Shown here in pieces: positions 24,322-50,043 of a stretch of DNA of 50,043 nt. Below the pieces are notes generated by a model. That model saw only the letters and a list, made by a program, of their open reading frames with translations. It did no database searches and was not told the DNA's origin. The position numbers and the translations under genes were made by a program. Location: positions 1 to 50,043 of the IMG/VR virus record IMGVR_UViG_3300047508_000210. One strand, given 5' to 3'. Every line of letters starts with the position of its first letter. Position 1 is the stretch's first letter. This DNA is from a virus. Its lineage: Duplodnaviria; Caudoviricetes.

Positions 24322-26489
24322 TGCCCGAGATTCCCTACACTGGCGTACCGGATAGGACTCCCGAACTCCGGCCAACCCCAAACCTCAACGTCAATCCCCC
24401 CGAAGCGGCGTTTGGGACCAACATCGCTGCCGCCACCCAACACCTCGGGCAGGTGGAGGAGGGTGCGGGGAAGGAACTCTTCGACCGGGCTTATGCCATT
24501 CAAGAACTCAACGTCCAGTCCGACGCCCTTGCTCGCATGGCAAAAGCTCAGGATGGAATGAATAATGCGTTTGTAGCGTTTAAGGAAAAGCGTGGGCAGG
24601 ATGCCATTAATGCATTCCCTCAATTTCAACAGGATTTAAACAAAGCTCTAGACGATAATAGCGAGGGTCTAAGCCCGTATGGTAAAGTGTACTACGATCG
24701 CGATATGCGAACGTATCGCGGTAAGATGTTGTTTAACGGTTCGGAGCATGCGGCGGATGAACAGAAAAGCTATTTCGTAAGCTCTGCCCAAGCACGACAA
24801 TCAACCGCGATGAAGGGAATGGAACTCAATCCTGATGATGTGAAGGGGAATGAAAAGCTGCTCGATGGCATTCGCTCAGATTCCCACGATACCTCGGCTG
24901 CGTTAGGTGAACCTCCTGGCAGCCCACAGTATATCAAGCGCGAAGCCGATGCTGTTAACGCTGCTATCATCTCCCAACTTCGCGGCATGGGCCAGACTAA
25001 TCCAATCGGCGCGTTGAAACTATTCGACCAAGCCAAATCCAAGAATGAAATCTACGGCGAAGATGCGGGGCGGATGTACCAATGGCTGAAGGTTCAGCGC
25101 GATACTATCGGCGCACGGCATAACGCCGGGCAAGTGTTAAATGAAGCCGCTGGGTTTAATCTCGGTGGCAGGATGTTGGATGAGAAAGGCGCATTGGCTG
25201 GGCTCACCGGCTCGGAAGGCGGGGCGAGGTTTTACAACTGGTCTGGTGCGGACCAGTGGGATCAATCCCACCAAAACTTCGGCCATCCGATTGGGGCGTA
25301 TTCGGTTATGTCGTATGCCCTTCAAGGCTTCCTGCGCCAAGCCGGAATGGGCCCGATGACGGAGGAGGAATTCAAAGCTGATCATGCCGCGCAGGACCAG
25401 CTAGCATGGACGATGTTTAATAAATACCAACAACAGTTCGGCTCAGCCGATGCAGCGGCGATTGCGTGGTTTGGGGGTGAGGGATCGGTTAAGGCAAACC
25501 TTGCCGCGTTGAGCGATGGTCATACCTCTGGTCCAGAGTACCTCTCCCGCTTCCATCGTGGGGTGGTGCAAGGGGCTGGCGAGGCTGACATTGCCACAGC
25601 GGCGAGGACAGTGGCGAAGTCCCAATTCCCAGGTGATGATGACTTCGCCGATGCCAATGAGAACGCTGCGTTAACCCAATACAATAAAGAAAAGCAAATC
25701 CGCACCGATACCAACAACGCCAACACCCAGACTTTGTGGGGCGCACTCATCAACGGCGTTGGGCCACAGCATGAAATTCCAACAACGCCGGATGAACTTA
25801 AGCTCGACCCAACCGCCGCACAAGCATGGGACTCGTTGACGCATGATGATCCGAAAGCTGTGCAGCAGTTCTTGAATCAGATGGCAAAGAACGCGAAGGG
25901 GGATGTTGCTCTCACCCCTGAACGTGAACAGAACTGGCAGAAGCTAGCGGGGCTTTCGGTCAACGATCCAAAAGCATTCATGGACCAAACCGCTGATGTC
26001 TCCAAGCTCGACTTGCCGCTTTCGATGAAGAAGCAAATCATCGCTTGGCAGAGGGATATCTATAAGAAAGCCGACGCCGATCCACAGATGTCGCATGCGA
26101 TGACCTATCTCCAGCGCACCGGTATCCTCCCCGCTTCTGGCCTAACCAAAGACCAAGACCCAGACGGCCTCAACCAATTCACCGGCATCCTCCACGACAT
26201 CATGTCCGATTACCAAATGCGGAATGATAAGCCCATGCCGGATGATGAGATTGAAGCCACGGCGACGAGGCTGTTGCAGCGGACGTCCACCGGGTACTTC
26301 GGCACCAGCATCGGCCAAGGCCCGCAATGGTTTAAGTCAATCGACACCGTCCCCGAACATGAGCGCAACCTAATCATCCAAAACCCAATCTGGCAAGGGG
26401 CACAGCCGAGCGACGAGCAAATCTTAAAGATTTACCTCGCCACGCAATACAACAACGTCGTCAATCCACCCAAACCCCCGAGTAAGTGA
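24321..26489 (+). CDS. Ejection protein (gp15-like) with lysozyme/transglycosylase-like domain
   Basis: TAATG-coupled MPEIP start; GSEGG...IGAYSVM...QD.LA...AAIAWFGGEG. Confidence 0.8.
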   Translation: MPEIPYTGVPDRTPELRPTPNLNVNPPEAAFGTNIAAATQHLGQVEEGAGKELFDRAYAIQELNVQSDALARMAKAQDGMNNAFVAFKEKRGQDAINAFPQFQQDLNKALDDNSEGLSPYGKVYYDRDMRTYRGKMLFNGSEHAADEQKSYFVSSAQARQSTAMKGMELNPDDVKGNEKLLDGIRSDSHDTSAALGEPPGSPQYIKREADAVNAAIISQLRGMGQTNPIGALKLFDQAKSKNEIYGEDAGRMYQWLKVQRDTIGARHNAGQVLNEAAGFNLGGRMLDEKGALAGLTGSEGGARFYNWSGADQWDQSHQNFGHPIGAYSVMSYALQGFLRQAGMGPMTEEEFKADHAAQDQLAWTMFNKYQQQFGSADAAAIAWFGGEGSVKANLAALSDGHTSGPEYLSRFHRGVVQGAGEADIATAARTVAKSQFPGDDDFADANENAALTQYNKEKQIRTDTNNANTQTLWGALINGVGPQHEIPTTPDELKLDPTAAQAWDSLTHDDPKAVQQFLNQMAKNAKGDVALTPEREQNWQKLAGLSVNDPKAFMDQTADVSKLDLPLSMKKQIIAWQRDIYKKADADPQMSHAMTYLQRTGILPASGLTKDQDPDGLNQFTGILHDIMSDYQMRNDKPMPDDEIEATATRLLQRTSTGYFGTSIGQGPQWFKSIDTVPEHERNLIIQNPIWQGAQPSDEQILKIYLATQYNNVVNPPKPPSK

Positions 26490-26638
26490 TGGAAGTCCCG
26501 CTCGAAATCTGGCAAGGGATTGTGGATCGAATTGGCGTGGCGATTCAGAATTCGCCGGGCCCGATGTACACACTCGAACTCCACGAAGAAGAACTCAACG
26601 CTATGCTTGAAGCGGTGAAGGGTATGCTCGATGGCTGA
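26489..26638 (+). CDS. Hypothetical 49-aa acidic protein
   Basis: TGATG-coupled; MEVPLEIWQG...GMLDG*; overlaps next start. Confidence 0.55.
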   Translation: MEVPLEIWQGIVDRIGVAIQNSPGPMYTLELHEEELNAMLEAVKGMLDG

Positions 26639-29600
26639 TATGCTTGACGAGGCGGTGCAGGATTACATTACCTCTGCCAAGTCCCGTACCGTTGCGGGGT
26701 TTGCCACAACCCCCGATGATGCAGCGCGGGCGGTACAGCTAGAGGATGCCACCGGTACCCCCGCTCCGCTCATCTCCCCCGACGTTCAATCCTACGACAA
26801 AACCACCCAGCGCGATATGGCGTCGACGATGGTGGAGCGCGATCCGCAGTTGATGGCGTATGTGCATAGCCACCCAATGGCGGCGTCGGTGAGCCAGAAC
26901 GATTGGGGCAATTTGTCTATACTCAGTCAGGCGGCACAGGCGCATGCGGGCATTCTCAAAACCCTAAACGCCCCGTGGGATCGCGGGTTTGATGCTGCAC
27001 TCGATGCCGCGAAGGAAGACTTCAACCGGCCGATTACACAGTATAGCTATGAGGACATCGCCAAGTCGTTCCCCGCGATGGGTCCTGGGAAAGGGCCGTT
27101 GGGCTTTACCGCGAACCTACTCACCGCGACGGGACTTAACATCGGCAGCATCATCGGGGAGGGCACATCCAACATCGCCTCTGGTCTAATCCACGGGGCG
27201 AGTGCTTTCGTCAGCCAATTCGCCAAGTCAGTGGGGATGTCCGACACCGCGGCGGATTCGCTAACCCGCGAAGTAGGCGCGATCCTTGAACAAAAAACCA
27301 TCGAGCCCGGTGCGGCGATGGAGGCTGTGCATGGCGATACCACCGAACATCTCAACGCCATGCTCCAAGCCTCGCAGGTTTCGCGGTCATTTATCAACAC
27401 CCTCAAGACCTTTGGCGATGCCGGGAAGGAAGCTCCTAAGGGTGTTGTCCCCGCCATCGATGCCTTACGCGGTGCAGCAAATGCACAGTTGCTGGAACAC
27501 CTGGACGAAGTTGTGAAGCAAGCCCAATCCAGCGATACCAAAGAACTCGCCTCTGGGCTTTTTCGCAACTTCATGGAACAGCACTATGGGCAATCAACCC
27601 TCGGCATTTCCAGCGATGCGGCGATGGCGCTGTATGGTGACAAACTTCCCGAACCCAACGATGGGCTGTTGGGTTGGGTTCCTGGCATTGCCGACAAACT
27701 CGAAGTCGCTCGCCAGACCGGGTCCGATGTTGACATCCCCATCGCCGATTGGGTGGCGCATGTGGACCCGGCGATTGCTAAGAACCTGCATGATGATCTT
27801 CGCATCTGGCCCGGTGGAGTCACCGCTCGGGAGGGGCTGGAACTTGGAGAAGCCGAGCCGAAGCTTATGATTGAGGATACCCTCCCACAGGTGCGCGGAT
27901 CGTATGGCATGGAGCCGATGTTCTCGATGGGGGATAGAAAACTCACACTTCGATCTGATGCAGATAGGTTCGGGCATGAACTGCCTAAATATGGCCAAAC
28001 AGAAGAGATGCATGGAATAGGTATCTACGATGAAAATAGTAGAATGGTTGGTTACATTACATTAACCCCGCAAGGTAAAAATTTAAACATTGAAGAGATT
28101 AGTGGGACAGCTGGGCGATGGGCAAATCACTTCGGGCCAGCACTGATTATGGATTTGAAGCGTCAATTAAAAGCTATGTATCCAGAAGCCGAGACTATCT
28201 CAGGCTATCGCGTTACAGGAGCGCGTAAGGAAGCTGGTAGCGGACCGGCAACAACTTCGGTAAAGCTTGATGCCAAAGGCTTGGATCAGGTTGAGGCAAC
28301 ACGTGACCTTCTCTCCGAAACCTATGCCCGCAAACTCAGCGAGAATGTGTCCGTTGACATTGTCCCCAGTCACCTCTACGAAGCCAACGAAAAAGCGATG
28401 GCGGGGATTGTTCATGAAGAACTAGCGCGGATAACTGGTAAGAAGGCGAAGGTTGTTCCATCGGCGGGGATAGACTACAAAGGCGTTGGGCAACCGCGTG
28501 GGTTGTATATTCCCAAGGCTGGGTTGATTGTCTATGATCTGCTGGGCGAGGACCCGATTGGAACTGGTCGGCATGAAGCCATCCACTTCCTCAAAGATCA
28601 AGGGTTGTTCAGTGACAAGGAATGGAACACTCTAACCGAAGCGGCCGAGCAGGAGGGGTGGAAAGAACGCTACAACATCGGCGATCGGTATGCCAAGTTC
28701 TCGCCCGAAGTCCACACCGAGGAAGCAATCGCCGAAGCATTTCGCGAATGGGCAAAGGCCAAGGACGGCGAACGGCGTGAACATTCCCCCGTCGCCCAGA
28801 TTTTCCAAAAGATCATGGACTTGCTAGATAAGATCAGGGGCAGGTTCAAGGAACTATTCGGCCGCGAACCCTCCGCTGATGAGTTGTTTCAGAAGGTGTC
28901 GTCGGGTGAGATTGGTGAACGGGCAAGCATGGGCACTGGTGGTGGTGGCCCGTTGTTCTCCATGGACGAACTCGAGAACCTCAAGGCCAGTGGTCTAGGC
29001 CTCGATTCCAAAACCTTTGCCAATCTCACCAAACTCGTCAACGAGCGCTATGAACGTGACCTCGCCAAAGCCCAAGAGAAGGCCGAGCGTGACCAGAAGA
29101 AACGCCAATCCGCGGAGTGGAAAGAAAACCGCGAGGCGATGAAGCAGGATGTTGAAGCCAGCATCCGGCAACGTCCCGACATTGCGGTCGACCAGTTCCT
29201 TGGGACTGGGCAACTCAACGGCAAGCAGATGCCGCAGAAGCGGTATTCGCTCCTCGAGAGCGATCTCACCGCCGAACAGAAGAAGCTGCTACCCTCCACC
29301 TACTATTCCAAATCCGGCTTTCCAGTCGATGAAGTCGCCAAGCAGTTTGGCTACCCCTCCGGCGAGGCGATGATCCAGCACCTCGGCTCCTACAATTCCG
29401 CCAAAGCCGGACGTTCTACCCGCGAGATGTTCGAACACACCGTCAACGTTGAAACCGATCGGCAAATGGAGGCGAAGTATGGCGACCTACCCTCTAACAT
29501 TCTATCTGAAGCCAAAGCGCAGGCCTTCTCGGATAGTGAGGTGCATCTTGTCACCGAGGAATATCAAGCTGCGGCCCAGATGGCGGGTGTTACCGCAGTT

Positions 29601-32336
29601 GACCGGGCTGTTATCGCTCAGTCCGCTAGGGACTCCGTCAACAAGATGGCGTTCGAGGGGATCAAATCCGACAAATTCGCTGAACTTGTTAAGAAGGCGC
29701 AAGACATCGCCGTTCGGGCGCTGGCTAATGGAGATCCAGCGTTAGCGGTGCAGGCCCTGCAGCGAAGAACCGAGAACGCTCATATCGTCAAGGAAATACA
29801 GGCGATCGAAAAGCAAATTCCCAAGTTCCAACGCCTGACCAAGTTCTACGCCAAGCCGTGGGATGTAACCAAGCCATCGCCGGTTGATGCGGAGTGGAGC
29901 CTGTTCACCCGGAACATGCTATCGAAGGTCGGCCTCCCATCCGGCATGTCGATCCAAGGTATGGCCCAGCGAATTGCCTCGAAGCGATTTGCCGATCTTG
30001 CCGATTTCGTCACCAAGATGGAAAACGAGAACGAGGTTGCAGGATTGCAGTTGCCTGTCCCGGATTGGTTGTTGAAGAATGACCCACAGCAAAAGCCGTT
30101 CAAAAACCTCACCGTCCAGGAATGGAAAGACCTCAACCAGTCCCTCGTGACCTTCGACAAACTCGGGCGTGATGAACAAAAGGCCGTCACCGCCGACGCC
30201 AAAGTCGACAAGGCCGAGCTTGTTGGGAAGATGAAGCGGCAGCTTGCGGATTACTTCGAGCCAATTACCAAGGACCTTGCAGGGAAGGGCGAGTGGTCAC
30301 AAGCCCTTGGTCACTTCATCGCCGCAAGCACTAGCAACGAAACCCTTATGTCGCGTTTTGACCACCGTGACACCCATGGTTTATTCACCGAAACCTTTTC
30401 CAAACCAGCGGCTAGTGCCGCCAACCACGCTGCTGTGTTGGAACGGGAAACGGGCAAAGCCCTTAGAGAGTTAGGCCCTGTCAAAGATGGTGAACGAACT
30501 CTCACCTCCCCCTTCATTGACCCGCGAAGCAAGGAGCCGATAAAGAACTTCACCCGCAATAATCTCGCCGTCGTCATCTCCAACCTTGGCAACGAGTACA
30601 ACTGGAGAACCCTAACCAAAGGTTGGCGGATTGACCCCGACCAACTCATGAAATGGGTTGAGGCGCACTCCACCATCGAAGACCTTGAACGCGCCCAATC
30701 CATGGGCAAGATTTGGAAGGGGTTGTGGGAGCAATCCTCCGCCATGTACGAGCGACTATATGGCGTGGCACCCGAGGCTGTGGAACCTCGCCCGTTCATG
30801 ATGCATGGGAAACAATGGGATGGGTGGTATCATCCAATCATCGGGGACACGGACCTATCTCGCTACGTCAACAAACTCCCCGAACTTGATAAAGCCGAAA
30901 CCAACTTCTGGCCTGCTACTAACAACGCCTATACCAAGCGGCGAACGGGAGCTATCCAAGTCCTTGACCTGTCTTACGACCAAATCGGCGTTCGGCTTTC
31001 GCAAGAAATCCACGACATCGCCTTTCGAGAGTTCGTCTCCAACACCGCGAAGTTGATGAAGGACCAAACCTTCAGGCAGGCAGTCACCGCCCACTACGGC
31101 AAAGAATACCTCGACCAGATGGACGGGTGGCTCCAGCGAACCGCCGGGAAGAATTCGTTCAACGGTGCAGCGATGCGACTTGCCCAACGTTGGTCGAATG
31201 AGCTGCGCCAGAATGTCATCTCCACCTACGTCGCCTTCAACCCCATCACCGCGGCAAAGCATGGCTCAACCGCATGGATGATGTCGTCGAGGGAGCTTGA
31301 CGCTAACCTATTCAAGTCCGTGCCGAAGTTCCTCGGCTTCACCGCTGAACTTAAAATGAACCAGTGGTTTGGTACCGCTGTTAGTGACCTGTACGGCAAG
31401 TCCCCTCAAATGGGCGATAAGCTTTGGGACTGGTCGGTTGGGGAGTCGGAAGAACTCAAGCGGCGGGAGCGCAACTACCAAGACACCATCGGTGGGGCGA
31501 TGGGATTGAACGCAGGCGAACGCCGATGGAGGGATAAGGTATCACAGGTCGGGGCGTCGGTGGTTGCTTGGTCCGACCTACAATCCGCCGTGCCGCTATG
31601 GCTTGCGACGTATCGCAAAGAATTCGCCCGTTCGGCCGAGCATGGTACCGCGGTACGTGAGGGTGATTTGGCTGTACGTCGGGCGCATGGATCAACCGCC
31701 ATCACCAACCTTCCTGCAATCGCCACAAGCCAAGACATCCTAGGCCCGTGGATGACGTCGCTATATGGCTTCATGGGTACCAACATGCAGCGGCGAATTG
31801 AGATGTTTCATGACTTGAACGATGCCTACAAACTCAGCATGTCGGGGCATATTAATGAAGCCAGCAAGAAGCTCCCCACCATCCTATCCTCCCTCGCCAC
31901 CTATGTGATCTGGACAGGGATTGTGGAGGAGGTTGCGAGCCAGCAGTTCTTCTCGGACCATCGATCGCTTGGGGAGAAAACCCTTGGCTGGTTGTTTGGC
32001 ACCGCTGCACAAACCGTAATCGGCGTGCGGGACTTAGTCTACGACGTCGCCACGGGGAAGGAAGATGCTGGTCTAATCTCCACCCCGATGCATGATATGT
32101 CCAACCTGCTCCGTGATGCGAAGAAGAATGACCCATTGGGCAAAGCCCATATCGGCAAGTTCGTGGCGGATGGCTGTGCAACCATCGGCGATCTCAAAGG
32201 CCTTTGCCCACGACACGTTGGCAAAGCTGCACAATACGGTATCGACATGTTCAACGGCTACCAAATCCCACACTCAATCGGCGATATTGAAAAGGGCCTT
32301 GTCACCGGAACTCAAAAATCAAAAATCGTACGCTAA
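26631..32336 (+). CDS. Large ejection/polyvalent protein (gp16-like) with HExxH metallopeptidase-like domain
   Basis: 1901 aa helical; RHEAIH...EEAIAEAF; last gene of the tail module. Confidence 0.85.
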   Translation: MADMLDEAVQDYITSAKSRTVAGFATTPDDAARAVQLEDATGTPAPLISPDVQSYDKTTQRDMASTMVERDPQLMAYVHSHPMAASVSQNDWGNLSILSQAAQAHAGILKTLNAPWDRGFDAALDAAKEDFNRPITQYSYEDIAKSFPAMGPGKGPLGFTANLLTATGLNIGSIIGEGTSNIASGLIHGASAFVSQFAKSVGMSDTAADSLTREVGAILEQKTIEPGAAMEAVHGDTTEHLNAMLQASQVSRSFINTLKTFGDAGKEAPKGVVPAIDALRGAANAQLLEHLDEVVKQAQSSDTKELASGLFRNFMEQHYGQSTLGISSDAAMALYGDKLPEPNDGLLGWVPGIADKLEVARQTGSDVDIPIADWVAHVDPAIAKNLHDDLRIWPGGVTAREGLELGEAEPKLMIEDTLPQVRGSYGMEPMFSMGDRKLTLRSDADRFGHELPKYGQTEEMHGIGIYDENSRMVGYITLTPQGKNLNIEEISGTAGRWANHFGPALIMDLKRQLKAMYPEAETISGYRVTGARKEAGSGPATTSVKLDAKGLDQVEATRDLLSETYARKLSENVSVDIVPSHLYEANEKAMAGIVHEELARITGKKAKVVPSAGIDYKGVGQPRGLYIPKAGLIVYDLLGEDPIGTGRHEAIHFLKDQGLFSDKEWNTLTEAAEQEGWKERYNIGDRYAKFSPEVHTEEAIAEAFREWAKAKDGERREHSPVAQIFQKIMDLLDKIRGRFKELFGREPSADELFQKVSSGEIGERASMGTGGGGPLFSMDELENLKASGLGLDSKTFANLTKLVNERYERDLAKAQEKAERDQKKRQSAEWKENREAMKQDVEASIRQRPDIAVDQFLGTGQLNGKQMPQKRYSLLESDLTAEQKKLLPSTYYSKSGFPVDEVAKQFGYPSGEAMIQHLGSYNSAKAGRSTREMFEHTVNVETDRQMEAKYGDLPSNILSEAKAQAFSDSEVHLVTEEYQAAAQMAGVTAVDRAVIAQSARDSVNKMAFEGIKSDKFAELVKKAQDIAVRALANGDPALAVQALQRRTENAHIVKEIQAIEKQIPKFQRLTKFYAKPWDVTKPSPVDAEWSLFTRNMLSKVGLPSGMSIQGMAQRIASKRFADLADFVTKMENENEVAGLQLPVPDWLLKNDPQQKPFKNLTVQEWKDLNQSLVTFDKLGRDEQKAVTADAKVDKAELVGKMKRQLADYFEPITKDLAGKGEWSQALGHFIAASTSNETLMSRFDHRDTHGLFTETFSKPAASAANHAAVLERETGKALRELGPVKDGERTLTSPFIDPRSKEPIKNFTRNNLAVVISNLGNEYNWRTLTKGWRIDPDQLMKWVEAHSTIEDLERAQSMGKIWKGLWEQSSAMYERLYGVAPEAVEPRPFMMHGKQWDGWYHPIIGDTDLSRYVNKLPELDKAETNFWPATNNAYTKRRTGAIQVLDLSYDQIGVRLSQEIHDIAFREFVSNTAKLMKDQTFRQAVTAHYGKEYLDQMDGWLQRTAGKNSFNGAAMRLAQRWSNELRQNVISTYVAFNPITAAKHGSTAWMMSSRELDANLFKSVPKFLGFTAELKMNQWFGTAVSDLYGKSPQMGDKLWDWSVGESEELKRRERNYQDTIGGAMGLNAGERRWRDKVSQVGASVVAWSDLQSAVPLWLATYRKEFARSAEHGTAVREGDLAVRRAHGSTAITNLPAIATSQDILGPWMTSLYGFMGTNMQRRIEMFHDLNDAYKLSMSGHINEASKKLPTILSSLATYVIWTGIVEEVASQQFFSDHRSLGEKTLGWLFGTAAQTVIGVRDLVYDVATGKEDAGLISTPMHDMSNLLRDAKKNDPLGKAHIGKFVADGCATIGDLKGLCPRHVGKAAQYGIDMFNGYQIPHSIGDIEKGLVTGTQKSKIVR

Positions 32337-33369: not shown

Positions 33370-34675
33370 GTCCGGCGGAGAACATCCGATACCCGGTTTT
33401 GCTGTCGATTCCGCGGTTTTGAATTAACCCAGCCGATTCCATTACATCAAATACCTTCATCAGGGTGTGGATGGGGATGTATTCCCGGGCAAAGTTAGTA
33501 ATCTTGTGTTCCGCCACGCCCTTGCCGCGATCAGTTACCCTGATGAAGTGGACGATTTCATTCATCGCCTGTGAATCCACACTCACAGTCCCGGCTTTGA
33601 AGATGTCGGGCATGTAGGCTTCGGCTTCCGATAACCATCCAAGTGCACGTATAAAGTCAGCAGCTGTGAGGACAAGGGAATTGGAGCGGTCCACCGCCGA
33701 GACCATTGATAATTTGTATATATTAACCTTCCTCCGTGATATGTAATGGAGAAGCTTCGGGTGTTTAGGTATGGGTGGCTCGCCTTGGCTAACCCAAGTG
33801 TTAACACAACGTGCGTATTCTTCAGTGACATGAAACTCTCCGGCGAGATTGTGGATGATGTTTAGGTCGTGCGAGAGATCGCCGAGCTTAGGCGCTGGGC
33901 GTTTGGCGAAGTCGTCGATGATAATACGTTCGCCGGAATAGACCATGATGGTGCGGGACGTAAACCCCTGCCCCCACGCTACATCGGGGAGTAGCTTGAG
34001 CAAATCCTGCGGCGCACAGGCGCAGAGCATGGATACCTGTGGGCGATCGATCTTTATCTTAATGTCGTTCGTTCGCCGGTTCTGGGCGTAGGGGTCGACG
34101 TCATAGAAGGCGCTAAGCCCCTTGATCATTTCCTCATCCCATTTATGGATGAACGCCCCGAGCTCCTCCGCGCAGATATAAATTGAATTGTACTCCTGTA
34201 CCTCATCACTACCAGGTATTGCGATTGTGCGCTTTGCCAAATCCATCACGTCGACCAATGCCGGGAACGTCATGGAAGTTGGTGCGATAGCGAATTCCGG
34301 AACTGCCATACCCAAGCGCTTTGCGACTCTCAAGGTCCTCGTTTTGCCAGTGCCAGGCTCGCCAATGATCATCATATACAGGTTGGGATAGAGTGCGCTT
34401 GAGGTTTGTATCCATACCCGTTGCTCCAACACCGCGGCTATTGCAGAAATCGCCACCCATTGCCGCCAGATTTTGGGTGCGCCGAGATTTTCGGTTTCAC
34501 TTACAAATGACCCTATCCAAGATATGCACTTTCGGGCGACGACTCCGCGTGTCGTGTCCAGTATATTCTCTGAGTCCGTCGGGATTCGGGTGTGTGCCCC
34601 GACAGTCTTTCTTGCACCCGAGCCCTGATCCTGGCTTGCCACAGCAGTATTTCCCTTTGTTCCAACCGGTTTCAC
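33338..34675 (-). CDS. AAA+ helicase-like protein (DUF3987-like); start uncertain
   Basis: YPNLY...GEPGTGKT Walker A, ICAEE Walker B, GFTSR Arg finger, winged-helix-like C-terminus. Confidence 0.85.
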   Translation of the reverse strand: MKPVGTKGNTAVASQDQGSGARKTVGAHTRIPTDSENILDTTRGVVARKCISWIGSFVSETENLGAPKIWRQWVAISAIAAVLEQRVWIQTSSALYPNLYMMIIGEPGTGKTRTLRVAKRLGMAVPEFAIAPTSMTFPALVDVMDLAKRTIAIPGSDEVQEYNSIYICAEELGAFIHKWDEEMIKGLSAFYDVDPYAQNRRTNDIKIKIDRPQVSMLCACAPQDLLKLLPDVAWGQGFTSRTIMVYSGERIIIDDFAKRPAPKLGDLSHDLNIIHNLAGEFHVTEEYARCVNTWVSQGEPPIPKHPKLLHYISRRKVNIYKLSMVSAVDRSNSLVLTAADFIRALGWLSEAEAYMPDIFKAGTVSVDSQAMNEIVHFIRVTDRGKGVAEHKITNFAREYIPIHTLMKVFDVMESAGLIQNRGIDSKTGYRMFSAGPTEQDGQTLQ

Positions 34676-36035
34676 AATCGTAGGGGATGCGGAGGGTGCG
34701 ACCGTTGTTCAACTCGATCGGCACCACCAAATTCGCAGCGAGGATGGGCACAATCCTATCCTCGGTTTCTTCGGGGTACATGAAGGTGATTGCGTCGTGG
34801 TCTTGGAACATGACTATAGCTAGGTTTTGGAGCCAGATGTTGAGCATTGCGGTGTTGACGATGTCGGCGAGGGAGCCTTGGGGATCGTAGGCGATGGCTT
34901 GGCGAAAGGTTTTGGGGTCGGTGCGGCGGCCATGGAAATGGCGACGTCGGCCGGTGAGGGTGGTGAGGGTGCCGGTGGTTCGCAGTTGTTCGCGGGTCCA
35001 GTCGTGCCAGAGTAGGTGGGCGGGAAAGGCTTTGAAGTATTTGGGCTGGAAGGCTTGGACAATTTCCAAATCTAATCTTGTCTGCGCGGCTAGGGTTGGC
35101 GGCATACCGCCATAGTTACTTCCATGCCCGAGTTTTTTGCATGTGAAACGGTAAGAGTGGTGGCGATAGAAGGGTTGCTCTGCAACGTGCCGGTCAGTTT
35201 CCAAGTTGCCACTCCAGGGTAAGCTTGGCCAACATAATCTAGCAACTGCTGTGTGAGGGTCTCCAGATTCACACGCGGCAAGGTATCGGTCGTCGGCGAA
35301 GAGGTTCCATTCGATTGCGCCGACGCAGAAGGATTCGCCGGATTTGGCGTCGAATTTAGCGAACTTCTGGCCTCTATCAGCGATAAATATGCTGCGCAGA
35401 GATTCTTCCACGTTCTGGAGATTTCCTCCGGTTCCAAACTCGGATAGGCTAGAACTAAAGCGTCCTGTGCCCGTGCCAGCGATGTTATAGCTCGTTCTAA
35501 TTCGACCATCTGGATCGATTTCCGTCCTGAGAACACTGATCTTATCTCCTAGCTCTGTCATCAAGTTGATATGCCGCACGATCTGCGTGGCAGCGGGGTA
35601 GTTCTCAAGCTGTTCCCGGGCAGCCCGGTCTGTCGTCGGTCGGCCTTGCTTTAGGATTTCGGGGAGTTGGAGTTCGTCGTAGAATAGGCGCTGGAGGTCT
35701 TGGTTGGATCGCCAGTTAAAACTCGACATTCCCACGCCTTTGAGCACGATATCATCAAGGTCTCTTTCGAGTCTATCGAGAAGATCGGCAAACTCGTCGA
35801 TAACTTCATCGCGTCGTCCCATGTCAACGAGGCAACCTCGGAGCCGCATATCCAACACAGGACCTTGTAATGCCTTTGAAAACTCATACGTCGCCCTCGT
35901 TTGGTTGTCGAGTTGGGGTTCGATGGCGGACCAGATGGAGGAAGTTTGGCAAACGTCCAAGCCGTTGTATATCATCTCCCGATCCCATTCGGTGAGATCG
36001 TCTGGGTCCATGAGGTGGGTGCGGATGATTCTCAA
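34497..36035 (-). CDS. polA: Family A DNA polymerase, polymerase subunit (carries ExoIII motif)
   Basis: TGTGRFSS, NLQN, motif A FDAKSGE, motif B KKLGHGSNYG, motif C QDHDA; YNGLD near N-terminus. Confidence 0.93.
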   Translation of the reverse strand: MRIIRTHLMDPDDLTEWDREMIYNGLDVCQTSSIWSAIEPQLDNQTRATYEFSKALQGPVLDMRLRGCLVDMGRRDEVIDEFADLLDRLERDLDDIVLKGVGMSSFNWRSNQDLQRLFYDELQLPEILKQGRPTTDRAAREQLENYPAATQIVRHINLMTELGDKISVLRTEIDPDGRIRTSYNIAGTGTGRFSSSLSEFGTGGNLQNVEESLRSIFIADRGQKFAKFDAKSGESFCVGAIEWNLFADDRYLAACESGDPHTAVARLCWPSLPWSGNLETDRHVAEQPFYRHHSYRFTCKKLGHGSNYGGMPPTLAAQTRLDLEIVQAFQPKYFKAFPAHLLWHDWTREQLRTTGTLTTLTGRRRHFHGRRTDPKTFRQAIAYDPQGSLADIVNTAMLNIWLQNLAIVMFQDHDAITFMYPEETEDRIVPILAANLVVPIELNNGRTLRIPYDCETGWNKGKYCCGKPGSGLGCKKDCRGTHPNPDGLREYTGHDTRSRRPKVHILDRVICK

Positions 36036-37132
36036 TTATCACCTTTGATGGTTTTTGCCTTCTTCCCAAGATGCTTCCATGCGCCTTCGTCGGTATAGAC
36101 CGAGCCCAAGAATCCCAGATCCTTAATCATCTCCGGCTGCAGGGCGTGGTGGGCGAGCATGGTATCCTCACTCGCGCCCATGACCCGGATGCCCATGGAG
36201 CGGTAGAGGAACGCTATATCGTAGAGTCCGTTTTGGAATAGCTTCGGGATTGATTGATCTTCGAGAACTCCCACAATAAGTTTCCAAGCGTCGTATTCAA
36301 ACTCTGCAGTTGCCCAATAACTTCGGCTTTTTCCTCGCGGGTCATCAAAGGGTATAACGATCGCAACCCCGGAGTATCCCATGCCAAGGCAAGTAATTCG
36401 CTCCCCGCTCGTTTCAATGTCGACAGACAGCGGTCGAACTCCTTCCCTTCGGATAACACTGCTAATGAATGTTTCGATGTCGGAAATAGTAGGCTCAATC
36501 CATATCTCACGCTCAGGCCTCCGTATGGTTGGGGTGGTGGACTCACGCAGGGCTTTGATTAGATCGGCAATTACTATTGACCGATCTTTAGGCTGTTTGA
36601 ACAAATAAGAAGGATGATAGGTGGCAATGCACTTAAAATCAGCCGCACAGTGCGTAGATAGAAAGGTAGAGCCTCGGAATTTCTTAATGCCAGTCCGTCC
36701 AGATAAAGCCCAGAAAGGAGTATTGCCAAGACAAATGACAATATTAGGGTTGATAGTGAGAAGTTCATTGGCAAGTCGGTCCAACTCGGTGGCGTATTGT
36801 CTACTAACATACTTCGATTTGACCAAGGCAGGGTAATCGTCCAAGCCCAAGAACTTGGGTCCGCATAGGGTGGCCAAGTCATTACCGTCTGGGTGGAGGT
36901 TGAAGACATTTGTTCGGTGGAGATCACTGTGGCGCTCCCAGATTTTGGCGTTGTAGCGCGGGTTTCGGGTTTTATAGTATTGGTTCATCAGCATTTTGTC
37001 GGTGGCGTCGAACTCGATGATGCCCGCGTCACTGAGGAGGCGGAGCAAAAACCCACCTGACGGCCCGACGAAGGGGATGCCAAGGCGGAGTTCTTCCTGT
37101 CCCCAAGCTTCGCCGATTAGGAGAATGGACAT
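36032..37132 (-). CDS. Uracil-DNA glycosylase-like domain fused to 3'-5' exonuclease (ExoI/ExoII)
   Basis: GEAWG..E...G.PFVGPSG, TNVF, TYHPSY; VDIET, QNGLYD, DTML. Confidence 0.9.
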   Translation of the reverse strand: MSILLIGEAWGQEELRLGIPFVGPSGGFLLRLLSDAGIIEFDATDKMLMNQYYKTRNPRYNAKIWERHSDLHRTNVFNLHPDGNDLATLCGPKFLGLDDYPALVKSKYVSRQYATELDRLANELLTINPNIVICLGNTPFWALSGRTGIKKFRGSTFLSTHCAADFKCIATYHPSYLFKQPKDRSIVIADLIKALRESTTPTIRRPEREIWIEPTISDIETFISSVIRREGVRPLSVDIETSGERITCLGMGYSGVAIVIPFDDPRGKSRSYWATAEFEYDAWKLIVGVLEDQSIPKLFQNGLYDIAFLYRSMGIRVMGASEDTMLAHHALQPEMIKDLGFLGSVYTDEGAWKHLGKKAKTIKGDN

Positions 37133-46334: not shown

Positions 46335-47087
46335 TTAGACCAAATCCATCATCTCGGCTGTGACCCAATAGGGGACATCGCCGTTGTTGGATTGCCAATC
46401 TTTCCATGACATGTTGGAGGGCTTGAGCCAGTAAGGCCGGGACATGGGGCGATCAGACTGTGAATCCCCACTTGGCGTAGGCGAGGGAACGCTTGTATTG
46501 CCGACATCCGGGGCTGTGGATGTAGTACCATCGGCAACACTTGCATTGGTAGGGCTGGCCTCACTCTGACCACCACTCTGGTCCGAATATCTCGGCTCTG
46601 GTCCAGATCGCGATGTCGGATCGGCGAAAGGGACTTGGACAATCGGCCTTTCCCAAGCGGGAATGTCAGCGGCGGGTGAGGTAGCCTCTCCAGTCATCTG
46701 GCCCGATTGGCCAGAGGTCTCCCCGACGTGTAAAGGGTTTGGGAGAACAACCTCCGGCGGCGGAGCAGCAACCGGCTTGGGGTCAACCAACTCAATCACC
46801 CCACCAAGGCGGTCCATAACGTGGCGAGCCTGTTCAAGCAGTAGTTCAGTGTTGACCTTATGGCCCTGCTCACTTTTGGTGGCGTGGGCTAGGTCAGCCT
46901 CCAGCTTTACGACCTGATCGCCAAGTTCGGTGTTGCGGGAGGAGAGGAAGGCGATGCGGGCATTGAGTTTGTCAATCTCAGCCTTGGCATCGGTAAGGTC
47001 GGCTTCAACCTGCGGGAGTTTGTCGAGGGCGGCTGCCATCTCGACGAATGAACTGGCCAGACTACGGCCGATTTCGGTGTTTGTCAT
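46335..47087 (-). CDS. Coiled-coil protein with disordered linker and Trp-rich C-terminal motif
   Basis: AAGGA RBS; heptads; RPYWLKP....W.DW. Confidence 0.75.
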   Translation of the reverse strand: MTNTEIGRSLASSFVEMAAALDKLPQVEADLTDAKAEIDKLNARIAFLSSRNTELGDQVVKLEADLAHATKSEQGHKVNTELLLEQARHVMDRLGGVIELVDPKPVAAPPPEVVLPNPLHVGETSGQSGQMTGEATSPAADIPAWERPIVQVPFADPTSRSGPEPRYSDQSGGQSEASPTNASVADGTTSTAPDVGNTSVPSPTPSGDSQSDRPMSRPYWLKPSNMSWKDWQSNNGDVPYWVTAEMMDLV

Positions 47088-47110
47088 TTGGGCTTGTGAT
47101 CCTTGTGGTT

Positions 47111-47357
47111 ATGGGTGGCTTTAATGTCACCGGACATTGTCTCGCACCCATCTTGGGAAGGGGGAAGCGGCGATCCTGAGATTGGTGTGGGTTAAGCTTT
47201 TGGCCATACCAACTTTTGTAACCGTCTCTCATTGCTCGCCGCTATATTCTAGGGTTTACACAGACCCTACAACTGTTGGTATCCTGAGGATGTGGGGTGG
47301 ATCGGCGGGGGTTGAGTAGCTACCCCGCTTCTTCGCACTGTTCCTCATTGCTACCAA
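47111..47357. ncRNA. Putative structured RNA region (four stem-loops, two sharing an internal-loop motif)
   Basis: Helices at 47111-47151, 47166-47243, 47250-47269, 47276-47357; no credible ORF. Confidence 0.6.
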
Positions 47358-47438
47358 GTGGCTACATCCGACGGTTTAGTGTCCGCCTCACTCTGCTGTC
47401 AATGATAGGTCCGCCAGACCGACCGTCTACCTCACTCC

Positions 47439-48140
47439 TTAGTGAGCCGTATGCGCCGGGGTATCGCCCTTACGAACCGGAACCGGGCCTTTGCCCTTAC
47501 CAGCACGCTTGAGTGGAAGCCCAGCTTGGGTCTTAGACAGCGTCTCCGCCTTTCGCTTAGCCTTCTCCGCTTCCAGTTCTGCAACCTTCTTCGGATCTTC
47601 CTGAGCGATAGACAGAACATCTACCTCGGCAGTATCCTCAGCAAGGCGAGCGTCGATAGCTGCCTTGGCCTTGGCGATGTAAAACTCCTCACGTTCAGCA
47701 AGCAATTTCTTGGCTGCCTCGGTAATGAGTTTTGCAGGGACCGTGGAGATACGCTTCTTCGCGGCCTTGAGGCGATCACGAACAACTTCCTTGCACTGAC
47801 GAAGGGCCTCGGTGAGAACTTCCTTGGGTTCCTTCGACGCGGACTTGGAGGTTGTGCGTTTCGCAACCTTGCCGGACTTGATTTCGGCATAGTTCTCGGC
47901 GGCTTTTGCTAGGGCCTCCGTCTTTGCCGTTTCGGCTTCTTCTCCCGACAGCTTGGTCGGGGCGGGAAGCTTAGACATCTTGGCGTTGAGCATGGTTTTG
48001 AAGTATTCAAACACCATAGCTTGCATAAGCCCGGGGTTTGAATCCAACATCGCCTCTACATCTTCGCTTTCGATGTCGAACGTCACGCCTTTGCCCGCTT
48101 TGCTAATCGGGATCGATAGGGTGGTCATCGAGTTTACCAT
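47439..48140 (-). CDS. Lys/Ala-rich helical protein, probable nucleic-acid binding
   Basis: 233 aa, highly charged, basic tail. Confidence 0.8.
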   Translation of the reverse strand: MVNSMTTLSIPISKAGKGVTFDIESEDVEAMLDSNPGLMQAMVFEYFKTMLNAKMSKLPAPTKLSGEEAETAKTEALAKAAENYAEIKSGKVAKRTTSKSASKEPKEVLTEALRQCKEVVRDRLKAAKKRISTVPAKLITEAAKKLLAEREEFYIAKAKAAIDARLAEDTAEVDVLSIAQEDPKKVAELEAEKAKRKAETLSKTQAGLPLKRAGKGKGPVPVRKGDTPAHTAH

Positions 48141-48148
48141 CCTCTTGT

Positions 48149-48441
48149 TTGAGCCCAGCCCTATTGCTCGGGCTCGGGGTTATTAAGCACTACCAACACT
48201 TGGGGTCACAGGATTACTCCGTGGTCGGGTCTTTGGTATGGTTGTAGAAACCATGTTCACCCAACCTTTTTGGTCCTACCTTGCTGTGGGTCTCTGGCCT
48301 AATCGGATAGAGCAAGTGATTGCTCTGGAGAATAGCGATCGGGTGGGAGGTTGGACGAGGATGCCTGTGTTTCACCCTAATCCCCCGTCGCTATTCACCG
48401 CAACAATCGGGGTGTCATCTCGTTGTTGGAGATGACACCCG
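48149..48441. other. Structured intergenic/leader region with several hairpins
   Basis: Stems at 48151-48175, 48238-48254, 48309-48326, 48330-48396, 48410-48440. Confidence 0.5.
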
Positions 48442-48451
48442 CTTTATGGCG

Positions 48452-49418: not shown

Positions 49419-49618
49419 TCCCTCCCAATCTTACGAGTGTTTCCCACGCTGCGCTGTTCCCTATGCTCATATTCATACGTTATCTTCGCCCATTTCGCCG
49501 CATCTTCAAACGTCTGCATTACCGCCCTTGGCAATCCGCGCCTATGATACAACACCACCCAATTACCATATAGCGGATTGAACTGAATATGCGGCTTAGC
49601 CTTTGGCCAATTGCTCAT
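49415..49618 (-). CDS. Hypothetical protein
   Basis: ATGA-coupled start MSNWPK, GGAG RBS. Confidence 0.6.
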   Translation of the reverse strand: MSNWPKAKPHIQFNPLYGNWVVLYHRRGLPRAVMQTFEDAAKWAKITYEYEHREQRSVGNTRKIGRE

Positions 49619-49809: not shown

Positions 49810-49838
49810 ACTATAGACTAGTTTGCTCAAATAGTCAA
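49810..49838 (-). promoter_or_regulatory. Sigma70-type early promoter
   Basis: TTGACT-N17-TATAGT. Confidence 0.8.
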
Positions 49839-49890
49839 CAACTATTTCATTCTTCAATAGATATCCCATCGATACAACACAGCCACATAG

Positions 49891-49934
49891 ATATCCTTGC
49901 GATATCCTTACCATATCCTTGCTATTCCCTTGCG
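49891..49934. repeat. 4 x 11-bp tandem iteron-like repeats
   Basis: atatccttgcg/atatccttacc/atatccttgct/attcccttgcg. Confidence 0.85.
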
Positions 49935-50043
49935 ATTAAGCGATTATTCAAAATCTATGGTACTCTCACGGTGGGATGTACTCACTCCCCCTCCCATACC
50001 CCTATACCTATATATTTATTTTTTTTTTTTTTTTTTTTTATTT
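49917..50043. repeat. Terminal direct repeat, copy 2
   Basis: Identical to 1-127. Confidence 0.9.

Follow-up and report, generated by a model that had tools for sequence, protein, structure and literature searches.

Paired hairpins downstream of an early phage gene belong to a conserved structured RNA of dozens of related phages, outside catalogued families

Phage early operons are a main source of known RNA-based transcription control, including nut, put and RNase III sites, and to our knowledge almost all such early-operon examples come from a few coliphages. In lambda, nutR lies behind the first early gene, ahead of a terminator and the replication genes; in the RAT hairpin, two similar internal loops are read by a protein dimer; and T7 carries many early RNase III sites per genome. 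HK022 put is described, in the part of the account drawn on here, as ~70 nt of RNA forming two stem-loops, with putR ~270 nt from its own promoter and affecting terminators as far as 10 kb away (PMC9378689). Here we analyze two stem-loops in a 351-nt gap between two minus-strand early genes, X and Y, of a complete 50-kb phage genome (the window, meaning the whole 50,043-nt stretch analyzed) in which the capsid, and only the capsid, resembles those of epsilon15/phiV10-type phages at 52-55% identity. These hairpins belong to a conserved structured RNA of dozens of related phages that lies outside the catalogued families, and the literature listings and abstracts that we searched contain no description of this two-hairpin element.

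Both hairpins lie where a sequence-only reading of this DNA had placed them (Table 1), and their letters are as it gave them, with unit A reading agcggcgA-TCC-TGAGa ... tCTCA-TTGC-Tcgccgct, unit B reading ttggtA-TCC-TGAGga ... tcCTCA-TTGC-Taccaa, and only 17 loop-flanking bases in common between the two. On the minus strand these bases frame the internal loop 5'-A-GYAA-U / 5'-A-GGA-U, which we term M1 and which defines the RNA family. The pair of M1 hairpins spans 192 nt. In the mRNA, unit B comes first and contains M1 together with another conserved internal loop, M2; a small linker hairpin follows, and then unit A, with M1 and a variable top. The earlier picture of two stem-loops therefore stands, and what it lacked was M2, the third small hairpin between the units, and the tie to the 3' side of gene X.

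Table 1. Positions of the element, its parts and its flanking genes in the window.
Feature	Position	Strand	Description or basis
Gap between genes X and Y	47088-47438	minus-strand element	intergenic
Gene X, 233 aa, early gene	47439..48140	-	ORF and translation; conserved upstream neighbor of the RNA
Unit B, first hairpin in the mRNA	47276..47357	-	outer stem, M1, 6-bp inner stem, M2, capped apical helix
M1 of unit B, 5' strand A-GCAA-UGAG	47344..47352	-	sequence
M1 of unit B, 3' strand CUCA-GGA-U	47281..47288	-	sequence
M2 module inside unit B	47297..47338	-	GUG/CAC lower helix, CGAAGA / GAUC loop, GCGGGG...CCCCGC apical hairpin
Linker hairpin between units	47250..47269	-	UAGGGU-CUGUGUAA-ACCCUA
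Unit A, second hairpin	47166..47243	-	8-bp outer stem, M1, 5-bp inner stem, variable apical domain
M1 of unit A, 5' strand A-GCAA-UGAG	47228..47236	-	sequence
M1 of unit A, 3' strand CUCA-GGA-U	47173..47180	-	sequence
Gene Y, 250 aa, first gene after the RNA	46335..47087	-	N-terminal coiled coil, disordered middle, Trp-rich C-terminal motif

Counted simply as short words, the two loop strands are not significant, whereas their arrangement within units A and B is. Exact copies of ATCCTGAG occur at 47173 and 47281, with a third, unrelated minus-strand copy at 24547, which amounts to 3 matches against 1.57 expected and a count of at least three in 20 of 100 shuffles; those of CTCATTGCT occur at 47228, 47344 and 49614, the last falling without its partner word on the ATGA stop/start overlap of two ORFs. 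Taken singly as minus-strand RNA, units A and B folded to -27.9 kcal/mol (z -3.75) and -27.5 kcal/mol (z -3.28), respectively, with none of 200 shuffles folding as well in either case, and both isolated folds were the described outer stem, 4x3 loop and inner stem. Searching the whole window with covariance model R1 returned only these two units, both of which are among the model seeds (unit A, 58.1 bits with R1 and 47.3 bits with R2; unit B, 52.5 and 46.0 bits). Relative to its closest relative (L136/L002), unit B carries three double compensatory changes and one G-U change in the outer and inner stems, and unit A carries three double compensatory stem changes relative to L136. At the linker position L136 has GGCAGU-CUGUAAA-ACUGCC, in which four of six pairs are changed on both sides around a similar loop, as judged from two sequences only.

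Evaluating the element across phages in an unbiased sample, namely loci fetched only through protein X (56-57 loci), revealed a family of fixed strand and place. Model R1 gave 35 matches in 29 of 57 such loci, every one in the sense of the gene and immediately 3' of X; covariance modeling found a family member in 35 of 56 loci and more permissive searches raised this to 45, with M1 not found in the other 11; and a strict rule-based search placed M1 after X in 31 of 56 loci, with none on the antisense strand of the post-X regions (28.5 kb) and none in another 400 kb. The distance from the X stop codon to the RNA is usually 8-54 nt and never more than about 230 nt (of 28 loci examined for their layout, 24 have 8-54 nt between the stop and the first modeled unit). 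The RNA occupies a single locus per genome, with two adjacent R1 matches in this window and a single locus in all 10 of the related records. Homologues of X (25-64% identity) stand directly upstream of it in nine of 10 genomes examined.

Comparison of the family members then bears on the base pairing itself. Stem cells are paired in 94.8% of 574 cases, a figure that falls to 28-37% when the partners are slid, and 11 of 13 stem pairs change on both sides. Around the loop, by contrast with these free stems, AGGAU is the same in all 45 distinct sequences, the opposite word reads AGCAAU in 40, AGUAAU in 4 and AGCAAC in 1, the loop-closing A-U pair is invariant (45/45), and the closing U-A pair is kept in 44 of 45. 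The check that the sequence-only reading had proposed, a covariance model with a search of relatives, thus yielded both conservation and covariation; its claim of one asymmetric loop on differing but pairing stems extends to related phages, where the loop recurs with compensating stems, and its view of the units as a repeated structured RNA motif holds, the minus (mRNA) strand being the one indicated by members that always lie on the gene-sense strand. Its use of G-U wobbles as a strand indicator does not hold up, as the family stems comprise 533 Watson-Crick cells with G-U in 11 and A-C in 8, which is uninformative.

That reading had been unable to assign a known family, and the covariance models of Rfam 15 assign none either: window positions 46900-47600 gave three weak, chance-level matches at E <= 10, none at half its gathering score, and the loci of 14 relatives gave only a tRNA (in L167) at E <= 0.1. 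Searches of 50,697 phage records with the gap (blastn) and with X (tblastn) returned no match, and among these records no cultured relative carries the locus. One scan of metagenomes and genomes for X gave three loci, and two further scans gave nothing, or nothing new; a partial X-like fragment in an alphaproteobacterial MAG had no RNA match alongside, its best R2 match having E 0.34 on the opposite strand.

The second loop, M2 (CG(C)AAGA / GAUC, with an invariant GATC), was found downstream of X in 25 distinct copies, and its lower and upper helices are paired in 87.3% and 78% of cases, compared with 31-43% and 21-29% when shifted. Together, M1 and M2 are arranged in several topologies: the hairpins may stand in tandem, two M1 loops may be nested head to head, and M2 may occupy an arm of its own. 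The M1 pair is in tandem in 10 lineages and nested with near two-fold symmetry in seven, nesting being the only workable pairing in L155, and other lineages (L142, L163 and L183) have a single M1, so two copies are not required. M1 and M2 are stacked in one hairpin in this window, L136, L148 and L184; they sit on adjacent arms under a common helix, GUUUGG/CCAAAC, in L139, L145, L147 and L155; and M1 stands without M2 in L142, L163/164/183/188, G005 and L079. The strand and place of the RNA are fixed, and its modules are rearranged between phages; the compact form in L145 is 73 nt long. The M2 hairpins are capped by UUCG in four separate lineages (L147, L174, L167, L176/178) and by GUAA in L184, which argues for RNA rather than DNA as the functional form; a wider census of GNRA and UNCG tetraloops, confounded by its G-U-allowed stems, counted 20 of 287 sense and 24 of 526 antisense loops. 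Judged by the strand lengths and flanking pairs that we take these motifs to have, K-turn, sarcin-ricin/loop-E and SRP-loop motifs seem to fit neither module. A lone-pair reading of M1, A(GYAA)U with A(GGA)U, is disfavored by a single example, L144, in which the inner closing U-A is replaced by G-C across the strands.

Neither flanking gene names a function. Gene X has no Pfam or PHROG family; the fold predicted for it, at pLDDT 79.5, is helical, and neither a fold search nor a profile search of PDB sequences gave a match at E <= 0.001. Most homologues found for X and Y are unnamed, the named ones of X being hypothetical proteins except for one labeled methionyl-tRNA synthetase by its source. 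Gene Y, homologues of which follow the RNA in L130, L132 and L122, has no Pfam family, and every named homologue is a hypothetical protein. A scan of 16 neighboring ORFs detected no N-like or CAT-domain protein. As G005 and G011 carry M1 without an X homologue, and 11 of 56 X loci lack a detected M1, X is not an obligate partner. A tRNA/tmRNA scan of the window found none. In L167, a tRNA-Pro gene lies ~66 nt downstream of the RNA on the same strand, such a neighbor being present in one of 53 loci.

The transcription context suggests that the RNA lies within a longer message. The sole good promoter-like site lies at 49838-49810, ~2.4 kb upstream of the RNA, and sigma-70-like promoters are not enriched upstream of the family (2 of 35 loci versus 172 of 1259 control windows), which makes an sRNA gene with its own promoter unlikely and, together with the short gap behind X, argues that the RNA is co-transcribed with X. 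The possibility that the hairpins would match an ordinary terminator class, raised at the outset, was not borne out here, since no intrinsic terminator was found on the minus strand across the gap; neither unit is followed by a U-tract, and after unit A comes UCCCCCUUCCC. Among relatives, a terminator-like hairpin follows the RNA by 10-11 nt in nine of 28 loci versus 12 of 133 control windows, and in G005 and L190 the M1 outer stem runs directly into five U, from which these members may also terminate. Downstream of the RNA, G005 has terminators and, beyond them, a fresh promoter-like site, a layout better suited to a 3'-terminal RNA than to an antiterminator.

Our tentative preference, held at rather less than even confidence, is for a cis element recognized by a protein or by RNA polymerase at the boundary between early and middle genes. 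The stem-loops are two copies of module M1 in an uncatalogued multi-module structured RNA, which would be made within the early polycistronic transcript directly after gene X. Because M1 occurs in tandem in 10 lineages and as a nested symmetric pair in seven, its invariant loops, usually present twice, may together offer a two-handed partner a specific surface to recognize; the candidates are RNA polymerase itself and a dimeric protein of phage or host. The terminator-like hairpins and U-runs that follow the RNA in relatives suggest a role at the boundary, where the RNA might work in cis as the immediate-early block ends and set how much transcription or intact mRNA reaches gene Y and the replication genes, perhaps by attenuation or antitermination in a manner comparable to nut, put or RAT elements. 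Against this stand the lack of a family or fold match for X and Y, the lack of a terminator after the RNA here, the distant promoter-like site, and the near absence of G-U in the stems (11/574), which is unusual for RNA.

The same position at or near the transcript end in many lineages, with U-runs, terminator-like hairpins and the new promoter-like site of G005, would also suit a stable non-coding RNA that, once freed from the early transcript's 3' end, acts in trans, for instance as a decoy or sponge for a host RNA-binding protein, a base-pairing sRNA or part of a phage RNP. We regard this as somewhat improbable. In many type-A tops a conserved single-stranded loop of CCACU type could be a seed, each RNA offers two GGA triplets, and the tRNA-Pro neighbor indicates that the gap can hold stable-RNA genes, although only that one locus does so; the RNA has no promoter of its own and no terminator after it in this window, and as a sponge it would present its GGA in an internal loop opposite the conserved GYAA, rather than in the hairpin loop of Csr/Rsm sponges, and in only one or two copies. 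A self-contained tertiary fold in which M1 docks with M2, as in a new self-cleaving ribozyme acting on the X/Y message or a ligand-sensing aptamer, is quite unlikely in our estimation. The ~10 invariant loop nucleotides per module are typical of active sites and binding pockets, both the stacked and adjacent-arm layouts would permit docking, and where relatives have a terminator-like hairpin at +10-11 the layout resembles an aptamer with its expression platform, but many members carry M1 without M2, the ribozyme and riboswitch models of Rfam give no match even at E <= 10, the sequence from the RNA to Y is not conserved, and topology varies more than in known aptamers.

Still less probable, we think, is a processing or stabilizing hairpin for RNase III or another host nuclease, like the T7 early R sites, with the loop limiting cutting to one strand. 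The element does lie between cistrons of an early polycistronic operon and is an irregular hairpin of two helices split by an asymmetric loop, and such a hairpin, remaining at the 3' end of the X message, would stabilize that message. Each genome has one locus rather than many, however, the inner helix is only 5 bp, and a double-strand-specific nuclease leaves unexplained why, between phages with X proteins of only 25-30% identity, the stems vary freely and the loop does not change. We consider it very improbable that the element works at the DNA level, as a single-stranded or cruciform replication or priming signal or as a hairpin promoter; stems this close to pure Watson-Crick pairing could fold on either strand, M2 holds its GATC, and the element is single-copy in the early/replication arm, yet the UUCG and GNRA caps recurring on the sense strand are RNA-specific stabilizers, the conserved loops are purine-rich on the mRNA strand only, and U-runs and terminator-like hairpins follow on that same strand. 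The likelihood that there is nothing special here, the hairpins being inverted repeats arisen by chance, an ordinary intrinsic terminator or part of short ORFs that begin at the ATG inside AGCAATGAG, we judge next to negligible. The short words alone are not over-represented, U-runs do follow a hairpin in G005 and L190, and ORFs of 56 and 33 aa overlap the units, but conservation and covariation extend across 45 distinct sequences while 400 kb of control sequence gave no match, and a terminator reading lacks its U-tract here. A protein-coding small ORF was rejected because its reading frame is not conserved: the ATG within the motif opens 56 and 30 codons in this window, the ATG-started peptides of L136, read by eye, have 7 and 17 codons, the words common to units A and B fall in different frames, and the AUG is AUA in L141 and L190.

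From uncultured phages, these results provide a well-supported structured RNA, with 45 distinct sequences and two invariant loop modules shuffled between topologies, whose size of 50-260 nt lends itself to direct biochemistry. As a defined target, it could lead to a new code of RNA-protein or RNA-polymerase recognition or to a new ribozyme or aptamer, or it could serve to mark the early/middle switch in this clade. The most far-reaching outcome, which we consider unlikely, would be a new catalytic or ligand-sensing RNA with an M1-M2 docking core, such as a self-cleaving ribozyme processing the early message or a switch made of RNA alone at the early-to-middle boundary, or else a new RNA class able, like put, to reprogram host RNA polymerase and widespread in a whole clade of environmental podophages. 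Were its function plain mRNA stabilization, it would still be a clean new RNA family fit for Rfam submission.

Unit B follows the helix-loop-helix-hinge-helix-loop-helix plan of the hairpin ribozyme, and other members place the loops on adjacent junction arms, but the loop sequences differ, many members lack M2, and the element is not a detectable homologue, as no Rfam family, ribozyme models included, matched at E <= 10. Antitoxin repeats of type III toxin-antitoxin systems, which are near-identical in tandem and stand before a terminator and an endoribonuclease toxin gene, were rejected, as units A and B have just the 17 bases in common and Y is a coiled-coil/disordered protein without a Pfam family. 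Csr/Rsm sponges, a sponge being among the roles suggested by the sequence-only reading, similarly present repeated GGA triplets on hairpins, whereas this RNA has one or two GGA, set in an internal loop opposite GYAA, and no own promoter, and Rfam CsrB/RsmY/RsmZ gave no match in the window or the relatives' loci. Like T7 RNase III sites, the hairpins are irregular, intercistronic and part of an early polycistronic mRNA, with an asymmetric internal loop; unlike them, they form one locus per genome rather than several, with free stems and an invariant loop, and of four T7 intercistronic regions that we folded, chosen at what we take to be the R-site positions (the record annotates none), three have stem sequence in common. 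HK022 put, compared by description, is likewise an early-operon phage RNA of two bulged stem-loops, read by host RNA polymerase, and relatives of our element lie upstream of terminators; put is ~70 nt near the early promoter, whereas this element is ~190 nt, ~2.4 kb from a good promoter-like site, with a third hairpin, its own invariant loops, and the option of a single hairpin. Compared with nut and RAT, it is much larger, its loops are conserved across very divergent phages, and no N-like or CAT-domain protein was detected in the 16 ORFs scanned. In position it nonetheless resembles lambda nut, lying after an early gene and before a terminator and the replication genes, and in form the nested double-M1 arrangement resembles the BglG-LicT RAT.

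The 50,043-bp window is a complete virus record with direct terminal repeats, its capsid protein 52-55% identical to those of the epsilon15/phiV10 type. Its two stem-loops, units A and B, lie in the gap between two minus-strand ORFs, the upstream gene X and the downstream gene Y, so that RNA from the gap is expected to be minus strand. The letters that the sequence-only reading assigned to both units were confirmed, with ATCCTGAG at 47173 and 47281 and CTCATTGCT at 47228 and 47344, as was the fold it proposed for each as minus-strand RNA, namely an outer stem, a 4x3 internal loop of GCAA against GGA (module M1) and an inner stem. Counted alone, the loop words are not unusual (ATCCTGAG has 3 matches in the window against 1.57 expected), and a third CTCATTGCT, at 49614, falls on an ATGA stop/start overlap and lacks the partner word. 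Folded singly as minus-strand RNA, unit A reached -27.9 kcal/mol (z -3.75) and unit B -27.5 kcal/mol (z -3.28), with 0 of 200 shuffles folding as well in either case; folding of the whole gap was less striking (z -1.79 minus strand, -2.25 plus strand).

Features of the window around the two stem-loops and elsewhere in the record
Feature	Position	Strand	Description
Structural genes	up to ~33 kb	+	terminase, T7-type portal, epsilon15/phiV10-like capsid
Early and replication genes	right end down to 33,338	-	DUF3987 primase-helicase, family-A DNA polymerase, Sak4-like protein, PD-(D/E)XK nuclease
1901-aa ORF	26631-32336	+	sole match is the 2231-position profile of PHROG 9880, of unknown function; probably a large protein, injected or part of the virion
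Family-A DNA polymerase	34497-37132	-	split over two adjacent ORFs
DNA polymerase ORF 1	36032-37132	-	UDG-like domain and 3'-5' exonuclease
DNA polymerase ORF 2	34497-36035	-	polymerase domain
Gene Y	46335-47087	-	250 aa ORF
Gap holding both units	47088-47438		351 nt between genes X and Y
Further predicted hairpin	47111-47151	-	AUGGGUG...CACCCAU, between unit A and the start of gene Y
Unit A	47166-47243	-	stem-loop
Linker hairpin	47250-47269	-	small, between the units
Unit B	47276-47357	-	stem-loop
M2 module within unit B	47297-47338	-	lower helix, CG(C)AAGA 5' / GAUC 3', capped helix
Gene X	47439-48140	-	233 aa ORF
Inverted repeats upstream of gene X	48318-48451		two, overlapping and imperfect, 26 nt (77%) and 23 nt (78%), where the early region has a further short piece of non-coding DNA
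Best sigma-70-like site of the region	49810-49838	-	TTGACT-17-TATAGT
Spaced repeats	49857-49934		three to four, 11-bp-spaced, ATATCCTTGCG-like, adjoining the sigma-70-like site
Terminal T-run	~50022-50043		long, ends the record

Comparison with relatives revealed a conserved, covarying and modular structured RNA that sits in a fixed place once per genome, a conclusion that we hold with very high confidence, and the general proposal of a repeated functional RNA motif stands. In the closest relative found (locus L002/L136, X 62% identical), both units follow X in the same order, with the loop words kept and stem pairs changed on both sides, as in the outer stem of unit A (A-U to C-G, G-C to A-U) and the inner stem of unit B (A-U to G-C). 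The linker hairpin likewise keeps its loop with 4 of 6 stem pairs changed, in these two sequences only. An IMG/VR scan for the two loop words 25-55 nt apart gave at least 118 loci; contiguous pairs just outside the pattern, scored for 120 matches among those listed, numbered 0 in 69, 1 in 25, 2 in 11, 3 in 5, 4 in 3 and 5-9 in 8. This long tail among the matches listed cannot be chance, and five of the last eight come from neither the window genome nor L002.

A seed alignment (A1) of thirteen units showed 96.4% paired cells and double changes at 11 of 15 pairs; because its members were picked for their outer stem, we sought an unbiased sample, 57 further IMG/VR loci fetched by alignment of X alone; in 9 of 10 genomes examined, a homologue of X is the ORF that immediately precedes the RNA (genome G005 is the exception). 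The covariance model R1 gave 35 matches spread over 29 loci of this sample, without exception on the strand of X and shortly downstream of it, and a second model, R2, gave 51 in the loci searched. Across the 45 distinct rows of the R2 alignment, 94.8% of 574 cells pair, against 28-37% with the 3' partners slid by 1-3 columns, and the covariation score is 0.731 against 0.05-0.09, a very large margin even for an alignment that, being fitted to the model, leans towards structure. The loops stay fixed over the same rows (5' word AGCAAU in 40, AGUAAU in 4, AGCAAC in 1; 3' word AGGAU in 45 of 45), so that the check for conservation and covariation came out positive. Alternation of C with U at the second loop position would be compatible with pairing to the middle G of GGA, and replacement of the inner closing pair U-A by G-C across strands in locus L144 supports a cross-strand reading of the loop.

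Independently of the models, a rule-based script requiring perfect stems found M1 after X in 31 of 56 loci with at least 150 nt of sequence there, with none on the antisense of these regions (28.5 kb) and none on either strand of the remaining 400 kb. R2 with default filters at E <= 0.1 found M1 in 35 of the 56; with filters off, 9 of the 21 non-match loci were re-searched, which added eight, and the script alone added two. All methods together place M1 in 45 of 56 loci, several of them near-duplicates of each other, leaving L150, L153, L159, L171, L176, L178, L179, L181, L182, L191 and L195 without it. Ten related records searched whole have one RNA locus per genome, which appears twice in G005 only through its position within the terminal repeat.

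The second module, M2, a further conserved internal loop that unit B contains beyond what the sequence-only reading described, is present downstream of X in 25 distinct copies, its lower helix abutting both loop strands and pairing at 87.3% in register against 31-43% shifted, its upper helix at 78% against 21-29%. Many type-A tops and the region above M1 share a conserved R-CCACU 5' strand and a 3' strand ending GYAA, of which the top of unit A in the window is a divergent form. These parts are assembled as B-then-A tandems (window, L136, L173, L184, L185, L148, L194), as single M1 hairpins (L142, L163/164/183/188), or, in L139, L145, L147 and L155, as a stand-alone M2 hairpin adjoining a 73-nt hairpin with two head-to-head M1 loops, both lying within a shared GUUUGG/CCAAAC helix; L138, L140 and L141 have the nested double-M1 hairpin with neither M2 arm nor enclosing helix. 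The inner helices of L155 differ in sequence, so that only nested, near-two-fold-symmetric pairing works. Within the first ~250 nt after X, L150, L153, L168 and L191 carry a different conserved, apparently structured sequence in place of the type-A unit (...gcauaugcc...gacugaccg...gggcauuuaacc...), after a stand-alone M2 hairpin in L191 and after a B unit in L168; this sequence may represent another RNA family of the gap. In a distant subclade (L174, L175, L176/L178), a motif agccauagcc-acc-ucaucuuu-gugg-cagccua and repeated cugacgc words lie 100-250 nt after X, downstream of the M1/M2 hairpin.

Beyond the last unit, a terminator-like hairpin follows at 10-11 nt in 9 of 28 loci (two subclades) against 12 of 133 control windows, and L079 also has a hairpin with a U-rich tail. 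Five U directly follow the M1 outer stem in G005 and L190, and G005 continues with a second terminator-like hairpin and then a promoter-like site. No terminator-like hairpin was found after the last unit in the window, L136 or L194, where a pyrimidine tract follows instead (UCCCCCUUCCC in the window); the hairpin at 47111-47151 has no U after it and no visible conservation in L136. A tRNA scan of 53 loci found one, a tRNA-Pro (UGG) in L167 (2370-2448), co-oriented with the M1/M2 hairpin and ~66 nt downstream of it. As for neighbour proteins, that of gene X has a helical predicted fold (pLDDT 79.5) with a basic tail and gave no fold match, family or cultured-phage homologue in the searches made, and that of gene Y is coiled-coil/disordered with a Trp-rich end. 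G005 and G011 have M1 and no X homologue, so X is not an obligate partner. A fragment 66% identical to X residues 76-185 in an alphaproteobacterial MAG contig of 1.5 Mb (L198), with no M1 RNA beside it, may be what is left of a prophage and may point to the host group.

The RNA starts 8-54 nt past the X stop codon in 24 of 28 loci compared, and the 110 nt before it show no enrichment of sigma-70-like sites, which occur in 2 of 35 loci as against 172 of 1259 control windows; the window is one of the two loci, its site at 47429-47402 being a weak one (9 of 12). Together these reject a stand-alone gene driven by a promoter of its own, and the layout points to probable co-transcription with the early operon, directly after X. 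Among public sequencing runs, no RNA data set containing the locus was found. The sigma-70-like site at 49810-49838 may be the early promoter, and the repeats adjoining it may be of an operator or iteron type. A coding reading was also rejected, as peptides from the motif ATG are not conserved and the shared words fall in different frames.

Four features favour a sense RNA: all 51 R2 matches run the same way as the genes on either side, the invariant loops are rich in purines only on the mRNA strand, U-runs and terminator-like hairpins follow on that strand in many relatives, and the short M2 hairpins have as caps a UUCG with a C-G closing pair in four separate lineages (L147, L174, L167, L176/178) and a GUAA in L184, RNA-specific stabilising loops that would be meaningless on the other strand. 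A structure formed in single-stranded DNA is, in our judgement, very improbable. The suggestion that G-U wobbles would favour the plus strand was not borne out, the stems being almost wholly Watson-Crick with G-U in 11 and A-C in 8 of 574 cells, which is uninformative as to strand.

We infer that a partner would recognise the loops themselves, as these are invariant while every stem position drifts and X proteins are only 25-30% identical, and that it may be two-handed, as suggested by M1 loops that are often paired, in tandem or nested with two-fold symmetry. Such an element could act in cis on read-through or message integrity at the early-block boundary, a reading that we prefer to its rivals but hold only tentatively, given its place after the first early block and before Y and the replication genes, often with terminator-like structures next to it. 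A released 3'-end ncRNA acting in trans, favoured by the G005 layout and the tRNA neighbour in L167, is possible, though we consider it doubtful. That M1 and M2 dock in a ribozyme or aptamer seems unlikely, with the two alternative topologies in its favour.

Among known systems, no Rfam 15 family matches positions 46900-47600 of the window at E <= 10, the search that the sequence-only reading had called for, nor is one found for the element at E <= 0.1 in 14 relatives' loci; it is a well-supported RNA family, absent from Rfam 15. No description of it was found in open-access text, which is not searchable by motif sequence, and its absence from print is unproven. A Csr/Rsm sponge, type III antitoxin repeats and an ordinary terminator were each rejected because one or more of the defining features tested was lacking. 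An RNase III-type processing site is distinctly unlikely: T7 has many RNase III sites per genome, and of four intercistronic regions folded at presumed R-site positions, as the T7 record annotates none, three have a common stem sequence, whereas in the present family the reverse holds, since its stems vary freely, its loops are fixed and each genome has one locus. The partner-dependent, cis-regulatory mechanism proposed here would, by analogy, be comparable to nut, put and RAT elements, a parallel that we offer tentatively. Put RNAs are ~70 nt and promoter-proximal (PMC9378689); set against that description, the element is larger and lies ~2.4 kb from the sole good promoter-like site.
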